A stretch of 64,000 bases of DNA from an uncultured Clostridia bacterium (GTDB lineage Bacteria; Bacillota; Clostridia; Christensenellales; CAG-917), in assembly GCA_947589475.1 (NCBI GenBank), contig CANQBO010000001.1:149136-213135 (forward strand). Reading direction: 5' to 3'. Shown here piece after piece: positions 48,626 through 57,429 of the stretch. Position 1 is the stretch's first letter; every line of letters begins with the position of its first letter. The notes under the pieces are model-generated. The model saw nothing but the letters and a program-made list of their open reading frames with translations, had not been told where the DNA came from and did no database searches. The position numbers and the translations under genes are program-made.

Positions 48626-48658
48626 AGAATATCGAAATATTCTGGAAATTTTTCGACA
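48626..48658 (+). promoter_or_regulatory. palindrome and 0A-box-like sites upstream of spoIIGA
   Basis: Perfect palindrome AGAATAT-CGAA-ATATTCT (48626-43), which contains TATCGAA. TTCGACA at 48652-58 is the reverse complement of the Spo0A box TGTCGAA. Confidence 0.35.
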
Positions 48659-48701
48659 TCAAAGGAATGATTGTTTGTAGGAGCGGGCTTATCATAGCGC
48701 C

Positions 48702-49463
48702 GTGAAAGTGTACATAGAGCTTGTGCTCTTCAACAATTTTGCGGTGGATATATTGCTTGAGGTCTGCACTCTGTCAATATTCGGGACGAGAGGAGGCAAG
48801 GCGAGATGCATCTTTGCCGCTCTTGTCGGCGCTGTCGCGGGCACGGCTTATGCCGTAGTTTCAAAACCGTGGAAGATCGCGATAAGAGCGCTGCTTGCGC
48901 CGTTGATGACCGTCATCTTTTTCAAAACGAAGAAGGGGAGGGTCGCGGGACGTGTCCTGCAACTTGTTGCGGCGACAGCCGTGTTCTGCGCGCTGACTTT
49001 CCTCGTGGGCGGAGCGACAAAAGGCATGAGTTATCTGCTTGGAGTGGACGTAAACGGCTATGCGGAGCTTGGTCTCGTGGCGGGCGCGCTTGCATTGGCG
49101 ATAATTTGCGCGCGTGCTATATCTCGTAAAAGAGCGCGTAGCGGAGCGCGTATTAAGCAGGTGTATTTGTGCGCGTCGGGGCAAAAGATAAGTTGCAACG
49201 CGCTTCTGGACAGCGGGAATCTGCTTGTGGACAGCTTTAGCGGTCTGCCCGTAGTTATAATCTCGGACAGTCTTGCGGGAAGTTTATGCGAGTGTCCCGC
49301 GGAGGGCTTCATCAACGTAAATTCCGTGGGAGGCAGCGGTACGCTTCCTCTCATCGGCATAGAGGGCGTTGAGGTGGACGGCGTAAAACTCAAAGCTCTC
49401 GGCGCGCTCAGCTTTACGGCGCTTGAAGGATACGACGTCATTTTGCAAGCGGGAATGTTTTAA
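48702..49463 (+). CDS. spoIIGA: sigma-E processing peptidase SpoIIGA
   Basis: N-terminal multi-TM domain and a C-terminal aspartic protease motif (LLDSGNLLVD). Position ftsZ-spoIIGA-sigE. GTG start, uncertain. Confidence 0.85.
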   Translation: MKVYIELVLFNNFAVDILLEVCTLSIFGTRGGKARCIFAALVGAVAGTAYAVVSKPWKIAIRALLAPLMTVIFFKTKKGRVAGRVLQLVAATAVFCALTFLVGGATKGMSYLLGVDVNGYAELGLVAGALALAIICARAISRKRARSGARIKQVYLCASGQKISCNALLDSGNLLVDSFSGLPVVIISDSLAGSLCECPAEGFINVNSVGGSGTLPLIGIEGVEVDGVKLKALGALSFTALEGYDVILQAGMF

Positions 49464-49518
49464 AATCGGCAATCTAAACGTATTGATTTGGTATGTTTAA
49501 AAGAGGAGGGAAATTATT

Positions 49519-50229
49519 ATGCTGAAACTGAGAGACCTGTGGGAAAAGATCATGGCTTTTTTCGGAATAAAAACCGAAGGAAGCGTCAACTATATCTCGG
49601 CGGGCAACAGTCTGCCCGCTCCGTTGTCGCCCGAGGAAGAGGCGGCGCTGGTGAGACGCTTTCTCGACGGAGACGAGCAAGCGAGGCTTACGCTCATCGA
49701 ACACAATCTGCGCCTTGTTGTCTACATAGCAAAACGCTTTGACAACACGGGCATAGATATGGACGACCTCGTGTCCATAGGCACGATAGGTCTCATCAAA
49801 GCGGTGAGCAGTTACGACCCCGACAAGAATATCAAACTCGCCACTTTTGCCTCGCGCTGTATCGAAAACGAGATACTTATGCACATACGCAAGACGGGGC
49901 GTACGCGTACGGAGCTTTCGCTCGACGAACCGCTGAACGTTGATTTCGAGGGCAATATGCTGTTGCTTAGCGATGTGCTGGGCACGGATCCCGATTGCGT
50001 ATTCAGCGACGTCGAAGGCAGTGCGGAAAGGGAAATGTTGCGCGCGTCATTCGATAGGCTTCCCGAACGCGAAAGGCAGATACTCTCGCTACGGTTCGGA
50101 CTGTACGGGAAGGAGGAGATGACTCAAAAGGAAATCGCCGATATGATGGGGATATCGCAGTCCTACATATCCCGCCTCGAGAAGAAGATCGTCGAGACCC
50201 TGCGCAAGAGTTTGGAGCAGTTGGGCTGA
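49519..50229 (+). CDS. sigE: RNA polymerase sporulation sigma factor E (pro-sigmaE)
   Basis: Pro-sequence LKLRDLWEKIMAFFGIKTEGSVNYISAGNSLPAPLS, then LIEHNLRLVVYIAKRF and CIENEILMHIRK. Confidence 0.9.
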   Translation: MLKLRDLWEKIMAFFGIKTEGSVNYISAGNSLPAPLSPEEEAALVRRFLDGDEQARLTLIEHNLRLVVYIAKRFDNTGIDMDDLVSIGTIGLIKAVSSYDPDKNIKLATFASRCIENEILMHIRKTGRTRTELSLDEPLNVDFEGNMLLLSDVLGTDPDCVFSDVEGSAEREMLRASFDRLPERERQILSLRFGLYGKEEMTQKEIADMMGISQSYISRLEKKIVETLRKSLEQLG

Positions 50230-52677: not shown

Positions 52678-53373
52678 TCAAAACATATCTTCCTTTTCTA
52701 TCCTCGCTCGCACCTTTTCGAGGGCTTTTTTCTCTATACGGGACACATAGGAGCGGGATATTTTGAATTTGTCCGCTACCTCGCGCTGGGTGAGCGCCCC
52801 TATGCCGCCCAGACCGTAGCGCAGACATACGATCTCGTACTCGCGCGAGTCCAGCTCTTCTTTCAAAATATCCATGAGTTTTTGCATCAGTATGCTGTTT
52901 TCGACGTCGTCTATGACGGAGCACTCGTCCGAGAGCATATCCATTATAGTCAGTTCGTTTCCGTCCTTGTCCACGCCTATAGGCTCGTTTATCGACACGT
53001 TTTGCCTGTGCTTTTTGGAGGTGCGCATGGTCATCAATATCTCGTTTTCGATGCACCTCGAGGCGTAAGTCGCAAGTTGCGTGCCCTTGTCGGGAACGAA
53101 ACTGTCTATCGCCTTTATAAGTCCTATGGAGCCTATGGATATAAGCTCGTCATTGTCGCCGTAATTCGTGTATTTTTTTGCGATGTGCGCGACAAGGCGC
53201 AGGTTGTGCTTGACCAGCACTTCCTTTGCTTCGGGGTCGCCCGCGCGGGCTTTATCTATGTATTCGCGCTCCTTTTCTTTTGAGAGCGGCTTCGGAAAGG
53301 AGCTTTTAGCCGTCACATAGGAAGAAAAAATTATCAAATTTTTCAGCAGTAATAAAAGACTCTCCAAAGCCAT
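52678..53373 (-). CDS. sigK: RNA polymerase sporulation sigma factor K (pro-sigmaK, uninterrupted)
   Basis: Pro-sequence ...IFSSYVTAKSSFPKPLS (compare B. subtilis SYVKNNAFPQPLS), then VKHNLRLVAHIAKKY and CIENEILMTMR. The ORF is contiguous with no intervening element. Confidence 0.85.
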   Translation of the reverse strand: MALESLLLLLKNLIIFSSYVTAKSSFPKPLSKEKEREYIDKARAGDPEAKEVLVKHNLRLVAHIAKKYTNYGDNDELISIGSIGLIKAIDSFVPDKGTQLATYASRCIENEILMTMRTSKKHRQNVSINEPIGVDKDGNELTIMDMLSDECSVIDDVENSILMQKLMDILKEELDSREYEIVCLRYGLGGIGALTQREVADKFKISRSYVSRIEKKALEKVRARIEKEDMF

Positions 53374-53394
53374 CCAGCCCTCCTAAGTTATACT

Positions 53395-53403
53395 ATTCTA
53401 TGC
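53395..53403 (-). promoter_or_regulatory. possible mother-cell-type -10 element upstream of sigK
   Basis: The minus strand reads CATAGAATA (CATAnnnTA), about 20 nt upstream of the AGGAGGG RBS. No convincing -35 element. Confidence 0.25.
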
Positions 53404-53524
53404 TCGACCCTTCAAAAATTGACATCTTTCGACAACTTTGTCTCTTAAATGCGAGAGTAAAGTTTTTGATATGTTCTTAAAGTACTTCTATATGTGAAAG
53501 GGCGGATACACAAAAAAATTTTTA

Positions 53525-53553
53525 TTGACAGATGACAAAATCGGGCTTATAAT
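53525..53553 (+). promoter_or_regulatory. sigmaA promoter of the FAD-oxidoreductase gene
   Basis: Perfect TTGACA - 17 nt - TATAAT. Confidence 0.7.
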
Positions 53554-53642
53554 TCGACAGGTCGCAAGAGAATATTTCGTTTTGGATAATAATAATTTAT
53601 ATTGCGTATTTATTGCGGCAAAATCAAATGCGGAGATGTTGT

Positions 53643-55255: not shown

Positions 55256-56380
55256 ATGCGGATGACAGATGATTTGAGATGCAGAAGGAGGATACGTATC
55301 GCGTGGACAGTCGCTATATTGACTGTGGCTGTCCTCGCGATATTACTGTTTCCGTCGACTGAGGGTACGCTATCCGAAATAGGCTCAAACTTCCCCATGC
55401 AGGCGATAGGTCTGACGTCGAAGGCGGCAAGCGAGGAATATGTCTACATCGGAGGCATACCAATCGGAATTTCCATAGGCGCAAACGGACTTATCGTAGA
55501 GGGGCAGAGCGGAGTCGTCACTCAAAGCGGCGAGGCATTCCCGTCAAAGGACAGCGGGATACAAAAGGGGGATATAATATACGAAGTCGACAAAGAGCCG
55601 ATAAGCTCGCTGTACATTTTGAAGCGCACGCTTGACGACGGCAAGGGCGCCGTAACGCTGTCCGTAAGAAGAAAAGGAAACAGTTTCGAGGCAAAGATAA
55701 CGCCTGTCGAGGATCTTAGCGGGTCGAGGAGGCTGGGACTCATCCTCAAGGAAGATATAGGCGGCATAGGTACGCTCACTTTTGTGACGAAGGACGGGCG
55801 TTTCGGCGCGCTGGGACACTATATACAGGACGGAGAGACGGGACTTAAAGACGAACTGAACAGCGGCAAAATTTATCCTACGTCCGTCACGGGCGTTACT
55901 AGGGGCGAGATCGGAAAGGCGGGCGGTCTGCAAGCGGATGTAAACAGGCTTCTCAAGCCGCTCGGCACAATAACCGAGAATACGCTCATAGGAATATACG
56001 GCGACTATGCGGACAAGCCGAAAGGCGAACTCATGCGCGTGGCGACAAAAGGCGAAGCAAAGATGGGCGCGGCGCAAGTGCTCACCACCATCGATGGCGA
56101 CGAGCCGACGCTTTATGACATAGACATAGTGAAAGTAATTTCGCAAAGCGAAGCGAATGAGAAGGGTATGGTCATATCTGTGCGCGACAAGCGCCTCCTC
56201 GAAAAGACGGGCGGCATAGTGCAGGGAATGAGCGGAAGTCCGATAATCCAAAACGGCTTGTTTATAGGCGCCGTCACGCACGTTTTTGTGCAGGATCCCA
56301 CGCGGGGATACGCCGTGCACAGCCGCTTTATGGTGGACGAAGCGGACGCGGGCGCAGACTTTATGAGGTACGCCGCTTAA
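55256..56380 (+). CDS. spoIVB: SpoIVB signalling serine peptidase (S55)
   Basis: N-terminal TM helix, PDZ region (GIQKGDIIYEVD) and the catalytic region GIVQGMSGSPIIQNGLFIGAVTHVF. Confidence 0.9.
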   Translation: MRMTDDLRCRRRIRIAWTVAILTVAVLAILLFPSTEGTLSEIGSNFPMQAIGLTSKAASEEYVYIGGIPIGISIGANGLIVEGQSGVVTQSGEAFPSKDSGIQKGDIIYEVDKEPISSLYILKRTLDDGKGAVTLSVRRKGNSFEAKITPVEDLSGSRRLGLILKEDIGGIGTLTFVTKDGRFGALGHYIQDGETGLKDELNSGKIYPTSVTGVTRGEIGKAGGLQADVNRLLKPLGTITENTLIGIYGDYADKPKGELMRVATKGEAKMGAAQVLTTIDGDEPTLYDIDIVKVISQSEANEKGMVISVRDKRLLEKTGGIVQGMSGSPIIQNGLFIGAVTHVFVQDPTRGYAVHSRFMVDEADAGADFMRYAA

Positions 56381-56721
56381 GCTTGGTTGCTCAAGCGCTC
56401 AACCGCAGTAAGCACAAATTGTTTGTTTGTCGGTTTGCCTTTGTTTTCGTCGAGGGTCTCGCCGAATTCGCGATACAGGACATCTACGTCTCCTCTCAGC
56501 CATGCGGCGGAGATAGCGTTTTGGATGTCCTTTTCGATCGAAGCCGCGTCAACGTCGAATATGCTCGCAAGCCGTCTGTAGCCGTTATACTTGAGGGGGA
56601 GGATCTGTTCTCCGTTTAAGGCAAGCTCTATGAGTGCCGCAAGCAACTTGTAGCCTTTGAGGTTTGGCGCGAAGCCCAGAGAAAGTAGATATTTTTTTGC
56701 TTTGATAATATTTTCGCTCAC
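56377..56721 (-). CDS. stand-alone Spo0A C-terminal (effector/DNA-binding) domain protein, no receiver domain
   Basis: The 114-aa product aligns by eye with the Spo0A C-domain: NLKGYKLLAALIE (compare HIKGYLYLREAI), ASIEKDIQNAISAAWLRGDVD (compare [21 protein letters not shown]) and KGKPTNKQFVLTAVERL (compare KAKPTNSEFIAMVADKL). GTG start, with no ATG anywhere in the ORF and a weak RBS. Confidence 0.65.
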   Translation of the reverse strand: MSENIIKAKKYLLSLGFAPNLKGYKLLAALIELALNGEQILPLKYNGYRRLASIFDVDAASIEKDIQNAISAAWLRGDVDVLYREFGETLDENKGKPTNKQFVLTAVERLSNQA

Positions 56722-56832
56722 GGCTAGAGAATAGCATACGCCATATCCTCGGCGCTTGACCGAATTGAGGTTACTTTAAGAATTTTTGTGCGATTTTGTC
56801 ATAATCTATGCGCTAAAAGCGTACTGTTTGGT

Positions 56833-57429
56833 ATGTCATCCGCAAAGTCGAGGATATTGAAGAGCGAAATTTCCGCCTATTTCAAAGCCAACGCGAAGAT
56901 CGTCGTCAGCGCGCTTGTTATACTTGTCGTCGGCGTGATCGCGGGCGTTGCGCTTGTATATAGGGAGGTCGGCGGAGAATTCGAGACGGTCACGAGAGTG
57001 GACGCGGAGACGGGCGCGGGGAAGATATTTTTTCTCGCTTTGGCGACGCTTGCGGCATGCTATGCGCTTGTACTCTTGTCCGGACTCAACAAAAAGACGG
57101 TGTTTCTATGTTGTATACCGTACTTCTTTATAGGTTTTATTTTGGGAAGATGCTCGACGGCGCTTATTTGCCGCTATGAGATATTCGGCTTGCTCAACTT
57201 CCTGCTTGTCTATCTTCCCGTATTTTTGATAAGTATATTTTTGCTAGTAATCGCCACGGCGCGAGTGCTGTCCGCCTCATGCACGGAGTGCGGAGTCGGG
57301 AAACTCAAACCGTCTTTTGTCGCTCTGATGAAAATATTTGCGATAAATGCCGCCGTGTGTTTTGTGTTTATCGTGCTCGTAGGCCTATTAGTGGGCGGAG
57401 TCATCATACCCACTCCTTTCGACGCATAA
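56833..57429 (+). CDS. hypothetical polytopic membrane protein (SpoIIM-like topology, unverified)
   Basis: Five hydrophobic helices. Start uncertain (GTG 56788 or ATG 56833). No diagnostic motif recognised. Confidence 0.5.
   Translation: MSSAKSRILKSEISAYFKANAKIVVSALVILVVGVIAGVALVYREVGGEFETVTRVDAETGAGKIFFLALATLAACYALVLLSGLNKKTVFLCCIPYFFIGFILGRCSTALICRYEIFGLLNFLLVYLPVFLISIFLLVIATARVLSASCTECGVGKLKPSFVALMKIFAINAAVCFVFIVLVGLLVGGVIIPTPFDA

Follow-up and report, generated by a model that had tools for sequence, protein, structure and literature searches.

A conserved Spo0A-type effector domain without a receiver at the spo0A locus of uncultured Clostridia

Introduction

To our knowledge, phosphorylation is the control step described for every Spo0A that has been studied, and the spoIIGA-sigE operon is the classical first mother-cell operon that Spo0A activates. 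Spo0A recognizes 0A boxes (TGTCGAA), and its targets include spoIIG, spoIIA, and spoIIE. Deletions of the Sad67 type within the receiver (REC) domain yield constitutive Spo0A mutants, and GerE, which regulates late mother-cell genes, is a stand-alone effector domain of the LuxR/FixJ type. For Spo0A itself, the isolated DNA-binding domain needs no phosphorylation to bind its targets (PMC3485338), and a survey of sporulation genes treated Spo0A only as a REC domain joined to a DNA-binding domain (Galperin et al.). Here, we describe a gene next to spoIVB in an uncultured Clostridia bacterium (Christensenellales; CAG-917) that encodes the effector domain of Spo0A and no receiver. It occupies 56377..56721 on the minus strand of a stretch of 64,000 nucleotides, referred to throughout as the window (contig CANQBO010000001.1, positions 149,136 to 213,135, assembly GCA_947589475.1), and an earlier note, made from the letters of the window without database searches, had already drawn attention to this open reading frame (ORF).

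Results

A Spo0A effector domain without a receiver

The earlier note had aligned the ORF, which is intact and encodes 114 amino acids (aa), along its length with the C-terminal domain of Spo0A, and the Pfam check bears this out: PF08769 (Spo0A_C) is matched over profile positions 3-104 of 104 with E=5e-20 and 71.9 bits, against a gathering score of 25 bits, and it is the single domain of the protein. The Spo0A equivalog model, TIGR02875, is matched in its C-terminal part only (positions 155-256 of 262), and the 57.1 bits obtained fall below its cut-off of 200. In a phmmer search of the PDB, the best match was 1LQ1_A, the C-domain of Bacillus subtilis Spo0A with DNA (E=4e-12, residues 13-110), and in this alignment EKDIQNAIS of the 114-aa protein stands opposite ERAIRHAIE, just as the earlier note had read the recognition helix. 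An AlphaFold2 model built from 30 family sequences (predicted local distance difference test, pLDDT, 92.8) contains six helices, and its only significant PDB neighbors in a Foldseek search are 1LQ1 and 1FC3, with a template modeling (TM) score of 0.84-0.89 to 1LQ1.

The accompanying claim that neither a REC domain nor a remnant of one is present withstood a more sensitive search. The N-domains of the 174 full-length Spo0A proteins sampled were used to build a REC profile, which was run with filters off at E<=10; in six-frame translations of the whole window and of 89 related loci (86 family loci), it matched three positive controls only. Another 1.06 Mb, from clade loci and others, likewise gave no REC signal, and no REC-bearing Spo0A was seen in ~2 Mb of clade and related loci, which mostly cover the same neighborhood. 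Many relatives have an in-frame stop three codons 5' of the start. A REC remnant or split gene was accordingly rejected, as the profile matched nothing but its positive controls, and the longer N-terminal extensions of some loci, which are open frames 5' of the conserved start, gave no REC signal and were treated as chance frames over the divergent gene. As the receiver half is missing, phosphorylation of its own chain is unable to switch this protein on.

The gene belongs to a conserved family under purifying selection

When 5.8 billion proteins were searched with the 114-aa protein, 223 hits were obtained. Each of the best 120 is a stand-alone Spo0A_C protein, 99-158 aa long and 71-98% identical, with PF08769 alone in the precomputed Pfam column. 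In a survey of GTDB that took one genome per species, relatives of the receiver-less gene were present in 84 species genomes, all apparently metagenome-assembled genomes (MAGs) or bins by their record titles, which include Christensenella sp. UBA..., Christensenellales, Clostridia, CAG:475, CAG:1138, CAG:917, and Ca. Limadaptatus. Several carriers (L012, L016, L026, L028, L052, L059, and others) are titled Bacteroides sp., Bacteroidaceae, Butyrivibrio crossotus, Phascolarctobacterium succinatutens, or Anaeroplasmataceae, and such titles, on bins with a clostridial sporulation cluster, are probably wrong taxonomic labels. The assembly index lists one family member, P0048, in 1111 blocks, and it was counted on 596 contigs; the organisms are therefore common in gut samples.

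Of 78 distinct family proteins, all those in which the helix is present (75 of 75) read E63-K-D-I-Q-N-A-I-S71, and the motifs GKPTNKQF and LPLKYNGY are also kept. The helix of the 174 full-length Spo0A proteins reads E-R-x-[I/L]-R-[H/N/T] in all but one, and the lone exception, RNAIRHAIE, may be an alignment offset. For the purposes of this analysis, we defined class A as proteins of 110-145 aa encoded after spoIVB, with an [E/D]-K-[D/N]-I-Q-N helix and an L-P-L-K-x-x-G-Y motif; the 114-aa protein qualifies, and all class A members that were traced come from metagenomes. A search of representative sequences returned 3086 Spo0A_C relatives, including class A, a second class of stand-alone proteins (class B), and tandem-copy proteins, and in this search, the nearest full-length relative of the 114-aa protein was at most 41% identical to it.

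The receiver-less gene is under strong purifying selection. Measured against its nearest relatives, the rate of nonsynonymous substitution (dN) is 0.008-0.011 at a synonymous rate (dS) of 0.74-0.81, a dN/dS of ~0.01, and the family median is 0.17 over 234 unsaturated pairs. The Spo0A_C protein is 98% identical to that of the related locus L001, compared with 79% for spoIVB, 82% for the membrane gene, and 84% for dac, a gene for a D,D-carboxypeptidase.

The gene occupies the place of spo0A

As the earlier note had stated, the gene lies on the strand opposite to spoIVB, and the two stop codons overlap in a shared TTAA at 56377-56380 (spoIVB stop, 56378-56380; Spo0A_C stop, 56377-56379). The arrangement in the window, with a convergent spoIVB, a divergent gene for a membrane protein of ~200 aa, dac, scpA, and scpB, is typical of most relatives. 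The convergent and overlapping placement had been stressed in the heading of the earlier note; it is true of this locus but lineage-specific, as the deeper relatives have these genes on one strand, and the 4-nt overlap of the stops is restricted to close relatives of the window, with a gap of 9-425 bp elsewhere. In L072 (CAG:1138), L074, and L079, the order recN-spoIVB-Spo0A_C-membrane ORF-dac runs entirely on one strand, with a Spo0A_C protein of 112-116 aa encoded 79-92 bp 3' of spoIVB and a membrane ORF of 178-210 aa, and the same one-strand order is found at 50-61% identity around P0137 (L170) and P0123 (L172) and in L173. Where Spo0A_C and spoIVB share a strand, the gap between them is 79-107 bp in L072, L074, L079, and L170, and 184 bp in L172. 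The full-length protein P0184 (REC plus Spo0A_C, with a C-domain 37% identical) is encoded in the order ftsJ-nadK-argR-recN-spoIVB-spo0A-membrane ORF (179 aa)-dac. Because this gene order is common to the deep relatives and to the full-length P0184 locus, the receiver-less gene is, judging from synteny, the positional orthologue of spo0A, from which REC was lost in place.

The convergent orientation seen here is a later, lineage-specific inversion, secondary in nature and no property of the family. In L059 and L069-71, Spo0A_C and the membrane gene are flipped together as one unit. Clade contigs recovered independently via sigE show the same association, with Spo0A_C adjoining spoIVB in 28 of the 28 in which spoIVB was detected. 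Unlike these 28, the 20.7-kb contig L103 carries ftsZ-spoIIGA-sigE-sigG, yet neither spoIVB nor Spo0A_C within 10 kb downstream, possibly the outcome of a local rearrangement.

Two mobile origins were also considered and rejected. The sole 'phage' record found by tblastn, at 61% identity, is a misfiled bacterial contig with recN-spoIVB-Spo0A_C-dac, and the plasmid matches are ordinary spo0A genes at 28-33% identity. The misfiled record is L173 (MT835614.1, 1-13781, from human feces), which GenBank lists as 'UNVERIFIED: Bacteriophage sp.' and which looks like bacterial chromosomal DNA.

A conserved start codon and a predicted leaderless mRNA

The earlier note had taken GTG 56721 for the only possible start of an ORF devoid of ATG codons. 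There is indeed no Met codon in frame, but an in-frame TTG at codon 26 means that the GTG is not the sole candidate. Nevertheless, relatives show little or no variation at residues 9-24, and in nearly all of the 86 loci, the start is a GTG or ATG at one and the same codon, often with the in-frame stop three codons 5' of it; for these reasons, GTG 56721 is the real start.

A TAnnnT hexamer stands 6-7 nt 5' of the start in 67 of 77 loci, preceded two bases upstream by TG in 52 of the 77, and it comes with no Shine-Dalgarno (SD) sequence. Comparison of 61 distinct main-clade loci shows conservation of T-15, G-14, T-12, A-11, and T-7, with a pyrimidine at -1 in 59 of 61 and a purine at +1. This conserved geometry is that of an extended -10 promoter predicted to start transcription on the first base of the start codon, or immediately beside that codon, and to give a leaderless mRNA. 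The ribosome-binding site had been described as poor, and an SD sequence is in fact absent, though this probably reflects a conserved layout of the leaderless type rather than a defect. The deepest members (L074, L078, L079, L081, L082, L084, and L085) have an SD-like sequence in place of the leaderless layout. Within the window, a leaderless-type layout is seen in ~8 of 56 ORFs and SD candidates in 38, which suggests that leaderless mRNAs may be fairly common in this organism. Examples of TAnnnT 6-7 nt 5' of the first start codon with no SD occur at window positions 269, 26903(-)/28618(+), 32962(-), 36958, and 43330.

Further upstream, the -35-like hexamer of the Spo0A_C gene (Table 1) reads TTGACC on the plus strand in a generic promoter scan. 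Beyond it, TATGACA(AA) is fixed at -81/-82 (36 loci) or at -51 (10 loci) from the Spo0A_C start and is followed after ~11 bp by a second CAAAAT; the two spacing classes are ~30 bp apart. The promoter scan of the plus strand gave TTAAGA-18-CATAAT with TG at 56776-56805, and the conserved element at 56794..56805 possibly serves the divergent membrane gene as its extended -10 or -35 region, acts as an operator, or does both.

Sporulation genes and candidate 0A boxes

The window holds intact copies of sigE, sigG, sigK, spoIIGA, ytfJ/gerW, and ylmC/ymxH, and sigE, sigG, sigK, spoIIGA, spoIVB, ytfJ, and ylmC are syntenic across dozens of species. The motif CGAC[AG], the reverse of TGTCG, is placed at -48/-49 in 17 of 27 distinct clade spoIIGA promoters. 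Within -70..-40, it is found in 22 of the 27, compared with 11% of background windows. Positions 6-7 of the box (canonical AA) are not conserved there, a count that is weak, as the sequences were selected by the core motif and are phylogenetically related. The layout at spoIIGA is also of the leaderless type, with a -10-type hexamer 6-8 nt 5' of the start in 23 of 27 loci. Between the 0A-like core and the -10 of spoIIGA lies a strongly conserved block, AAAGGAAAGATTTT (window 48640-48704; 27 clade loci), to which no promoter consensus could be assigned. A sigma-H or sporulation-sigma reading of AAAGGAAAGATTTT, and likewise of TATGACAAAA 5' of Spo0A_C, was rejected because the blocks are not spaced as in the consensus promoters.

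Of 75 distinct regions upstream of sigK in the clade, 19 also contain a perfect 0A box, and these boxes cluster at -58..-71; by our own estimate, ~2 would be expected by chance. In the region upstream of sigK in the window (53374-53612), TGTCGAA is followed 10 bp on by TGTCAAT, both just 5' of the element CATAGAATA, which we take to be a match to a -10 of the sigma-K/E type. We know of no part for direct control of sigK by Spo0A in the B. subtilis model. The window as a whole contains 21 copies of TGTCGAA against 11.7 +/- 3.2 expected, and the five intergenic ones lie upstream of spoIIGA, sigG, sigK (two), and a D-Ala-D-Ala ligase gene.

The base-specific contacts of Spo0A are with G2, C4, and G5 of the 0A box (PMC3485338), and these are the bases of the box that stay fixed in the clade. 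A literature search for the base-contacting residues of Spo0A found none, and residue-to-base assignments were not used as evidence. Judging from these motifs, 0A-type regulation persists in the clade, and the protein encoded at the spo0A locus would be the obvious reader of the boxes.

Full-length relatives with an altered phosphorylation site

Among the 174 full-length Spo0A proteins sampled, a sample biased toward relatives of the queries, 32 lack the phospho-acceptor Asp, with Glu in its place in 14 and Ser in 10. Those with Glu or Ser include P0184, P0290, and P0291 (L087-L089), P0319, P0363, P0293, and others, and their acidic pocket is often degenerate. These may be natural pseudo-receiver forms of Spo0A. 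Despite its bias, the sample suggests that a Spo0A independent of phosphorylation may be no rarity in uncultured Clostridia. Another full-length Spo0A, P0292 (315 aa), contains an exact internal duplication of ~45 residues, from the recognition helix to GKPTNSEFIAIIA, which could be real or an assembly artifact.

The divergent membrane gene

The polytopic protein encoded divergently from Spo0A_C has 11 homologues, and no Pfam or NCBIfam match was obtained for it, either singly or across 16 members. AlphaFold2 places five long helices in it (pLDDT, 80.6), and a fold search of the PDB with this model gave no match. The motifs GEFERV, KVFF, NxKTVFL, and NLLFVYLPFF are kept within the clade. A membrane ORF of like size occupies the slot after Spo0A_C, or after full-length spo0A, in distant relatives, and BLASTP detected no similarity between the versions from these distant relatives. 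In size and topology, the protein brings SpoIIM to mind, a likeness that is presumptive and no more than our impression.

Table 1. Positions of the features discussed, in coordinates of the window
Feature	Position	Strand	Remarks
spoIIGA-sigE operon	48702..50229	+	TIGR02854 E=4e-21; SigE NF006158 341.8 bits vs cut-off 339; presumed target
0A box TGTCGAA (TTCGACA on +), perfect	48652..48658	-	~48 nt 5' of spoIIGA; candidate target site
-10 hexamer TATCAT	48690..48695	+	6 nt 5' of spoIIGA GTG; leaderless layout
sigK	52678-53373	-	intact in window
0A box TGTCGAA, perfect	53428..53434	-	~61 nt 5' of sigK start; second box at 53553-53559
spoIVB (S55 peptidase + PDZ)	55256..56380	+	PF05580 E=4e-67; TIGR02860 296.5 bits
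Receiver-less Spo0A coding sequence	56377..56721	-	114 aa; Spo0A_C domain only; class A; helix EKDIQNAIS = residues 63-71
Extended -10 TGcTATTCT	56728..56736	-	ends 6 nt 5' of GTG; computational prediction
-35-like GGTCAA	56756..56761	-	22-24 nt 5' of -10; weakly conserved; TTGTCA/TTGCCA in relatives
Conserved intergenic element	56794..56805	.	ATTATGACAAAA on gene strand, TTTTGTCATAAT on +
Divergent membrane gene	56833..57429	+	198-aa polytopic protein; gene call in L001; synteny

Discussion

On balance, although by a modest margin over doubt, we favor the interpretation that the ORF serves this lineage as its functional spo0A, of which only the effector domain is left. According to this model, the ancestor of a deep, uncultured clade of gut Clostridia would have lost the REC domain of Spo0A in place, within the ancestral order recN-spoIVB-spo0A-membrane gene-dac, and the shortened gene would have been inverted later in the sub-lineage of the window, where it now converges on spoIVB. 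The six-helix Spo0A_C fold would have been kept and the recognition helix fixed as E-K-D-I-Q-N. Transcription from its own extended -10 promoter would yield a leaderless mRNA with GTG or ATG as its first codon, and the protein would bind 0A-type boxes with a TGTCG core, such as the one ~48 nt 5' of spoIIGA-sigE, and turn on sporulation genes. With the receiver absent, there would be no phosphorylation gate, and activity would be set by the amount of protein made or by partner proteins, the amount in turn being controlled by the promoter and by inefficient translation of a leaderless GUG message. Such a mechanism would resemble that of GerE or of the engineered constitutive C-domain of Spo0A. 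That the protein binds DNA, activates transcription, and serves sporulation, and that the genome holds no other Spo0A, are inferences. The earlier note had offered, as one of two readings, a phosphorelay-independent Spo0A-like factor or competitor with altered specificity. As far as can be read from the DNA, a phosphorelay-independent factor is supported, and synteny strengthens the case. A competitor would require a full-length Spo0A elsewhere in the genome. Altered specificity fares less well, as the TGTCG core is kept before spoIIGA, perfect TGTCGAA boxes are enriched before sigK, and conservation is lost only at positions 6-7 of the spoIIGA box.

A bolder version, which we put forward tentatively and would hesitate to bet on, is that the receiver-less protein is the only Spo0A of a large and widespread clade and that these bacteria enter sporulation without phosphorylation input, that is, with no kinases, phosphorelay, or phosphatases acting on Spo0A. 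The decision would then be made by the amount of a constitutively active effector translated from a leaderless GUG or AUG mRNA, and the Arg-to-Lys and Arg-to-Gln changes may have retuned DNA affinity or specificity to give a workable threshold switch. The lineages whose full-length Spo0A has Glu or Ser at the phosphorylation site could represent intermediate stages.

Several points weigh against the view that this gene is the functional spo0A of its lineage. Both helix arginines of full-length Spo0A are replaced, by Lys and Gln, yet TGTCG before spoIIGA and TGTCGAA before sigK are kept or enriched, and the kept boxes fit a persisting canonical reader as well as they fit retained specificity. 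No canonical 0A box was found in the upstream regions of the Spo0A_C loci, in contrast to the autoregulated spo0A genes of the literature; the promoter and the leaderless start are themselves predictions from sequence. None of the clade members that were traced is cultured, and spore formation is therefore putative. The MAG-based predictor SpoMAG calls most Christensenellales non-sporulating (PMC12536801). A canonical Spo0A with a REC domain may be encoded elsewhere in these genomes, and in the survey of Galperin et al., 11 of 118 Spo0A-positive genomes had paralogues.

The changed helix and the occurrence of paralogues would both be accommodated if the gene were an accessory paralogue, with a full-length Spo0A encoded elsewhere and the receiver-less protein either modulating it at 0A boxes, as a competitor, co-activator, or antagonist independent of phosphorylation, or governing a separate regulon through its altered helix. 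We consider this unlikely, though it is the most serious of the alternatives. The retention of the TGTCG core and of perfect boxes despite the loss of both arginines is what it would lead one to expect, multiple copies of spo0A are known in some Clostridia (Galperin et al.), and further stand-alone Spo0A_C proteins, whose helix is canonical, are numerous in public data. However, it is the single canonical spo0A slot that the gene occupies, with neighbors on both sides as for full-length spo0A, and it is not a recent duplicate, as no full-length relative exceeds 41% identity. The lack of a REC-bearing Spo0A in the ~2 Mb searched points the same way, if weakly, as mostly the same neighborhood was covered.

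The gene might instead encode a functional and conserved regulator that has been repurposed in non-sporulating lineages, the nearby sporulation genes being relics or otherwise used. The clade is uncultured and has never been seen to form spores, many bacteria that do not sporulate have Spo0A, and the SpoMAG calls agree with such a scenario. It is nonetheless improbable, given that sigE, sigG, sigK, spoIIGA, spoIVB, ytfJ, and ylmC are intact and syntenic in dozens of species and that 0A-type boxes stand at conserved positions 5' of spoIIGA and sigK. Finally, an annotation artifact or an unexpressed spo0A fragment left by inversion, the other reading in the earlier note being of such a decaying product of rearrangement, could draw on the GTG start, the missing SD sequence, the absence of ATG in frame, and the overlap with the spoIVB stop, but it is barely conceivable and, as to decay, refuted by purifying selection (dN/dS ~0.01-0.2), an invariant helix, a start codon and extended -10 at fixed spacing in 67 of 77 loci, presence in 84 species genomes, adjacency to spoIVB in 28 of 28 contigs, and better conservation than that of the neighboring genes.

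If the gene is indeed the spo0A of this lineage, an effector-only locus in genomes that keep the genes for sigma-E, sigma-G, and sigma-K would offer a natural example of initiation without phosphorylation, relevant to the ways in which commitment to sporulation can be rewired. The finding also has practical implications. Surveys of MAGs take an annotated spo0A as a marker of sporulation potential (PMC11536998), and some members of the family carry the Joint Genome Institute (JGI) label 'response regulator (stage 0 sporulation protein A)'; such surveys therefore probably count these genomes while overlooking the missing receiver.

Comparison with known systems

Databases already contain proteins with this domain-only architecture. 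Some family members are named 'sporulation initiation factor Spo0A C-terminal domain-containing protein' by NCBI, and the stand-alone proteins so named have the same Pfam domain without REC. The searchable literature contained no description of a clade that replaced spo0A in place by a receiver-less form, nor any study of such a protein. Class B stand-alone proteins, unlike class A, combine the canonical ERAIRHAIE helix with unrelated N-terminal extensions. P0121 (394 aa), P0122 (454 aa), P0126, and P0130, which have three or four tandem Spo0A_C domains and no receiver, also scored among the best when representative sequences were searched.

Compared with Spo0A of B. subtilis and Clostridioides difficile, the receiver-less protein shares the Spo0A_C fold, the GKPTN and W-x-R-G motifs, the slot after recN-spoIVB, and the 0A-box cores 5' of spoIIGA-sigE. 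It differs in having no phospho-Asp, no phosphorelay input, and no REC-mediated dimerization or inhibition, in its recognition helix (E-K-D-I-Q-N rather than E-R-A-I-R-H), in the preceding helix ('LPLKYNGY' rather than 'SITKVLYP'), and in its predicted leaderless GTG/ATG start and own promoter without a canonical 0A box. Of the marks by which Spo0A proper is recognized, it thus lacks three (REC, the equivalog score, and the helix) and has two (the domain and the locus). The P0184 family shares with it the order recN-spoIVB-spo0A-membrane ORF-dac and apparently escapes phospho-Asp control as well, Asp56 being replaced by Glu or Ser, but retains both the REC fold and the canonical recognition helix.

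Functionally, its nearest analogues are GerE-like effector-only regulators and the engineered constitutive C-domain of Spo0A. GerE is likewise a small sporulation regulator that consists of an output domain only and is presumably set by timing and by the amount made, although it belongs to an unrelated helix-turn-helix family and acts late in sporulation, not at initiation. The constitutive C-domain of Spo0A is an effector that acts unphosphorylated and without a receiver, which is the behavior proposed here for the receiver-less protein; that C-domain and the Sad67-type deletions, however, are laboratory constructs with a canonical helix, whereas class A is natural, ancient, and selected, with a changed helix and a predicted promoter of its own.

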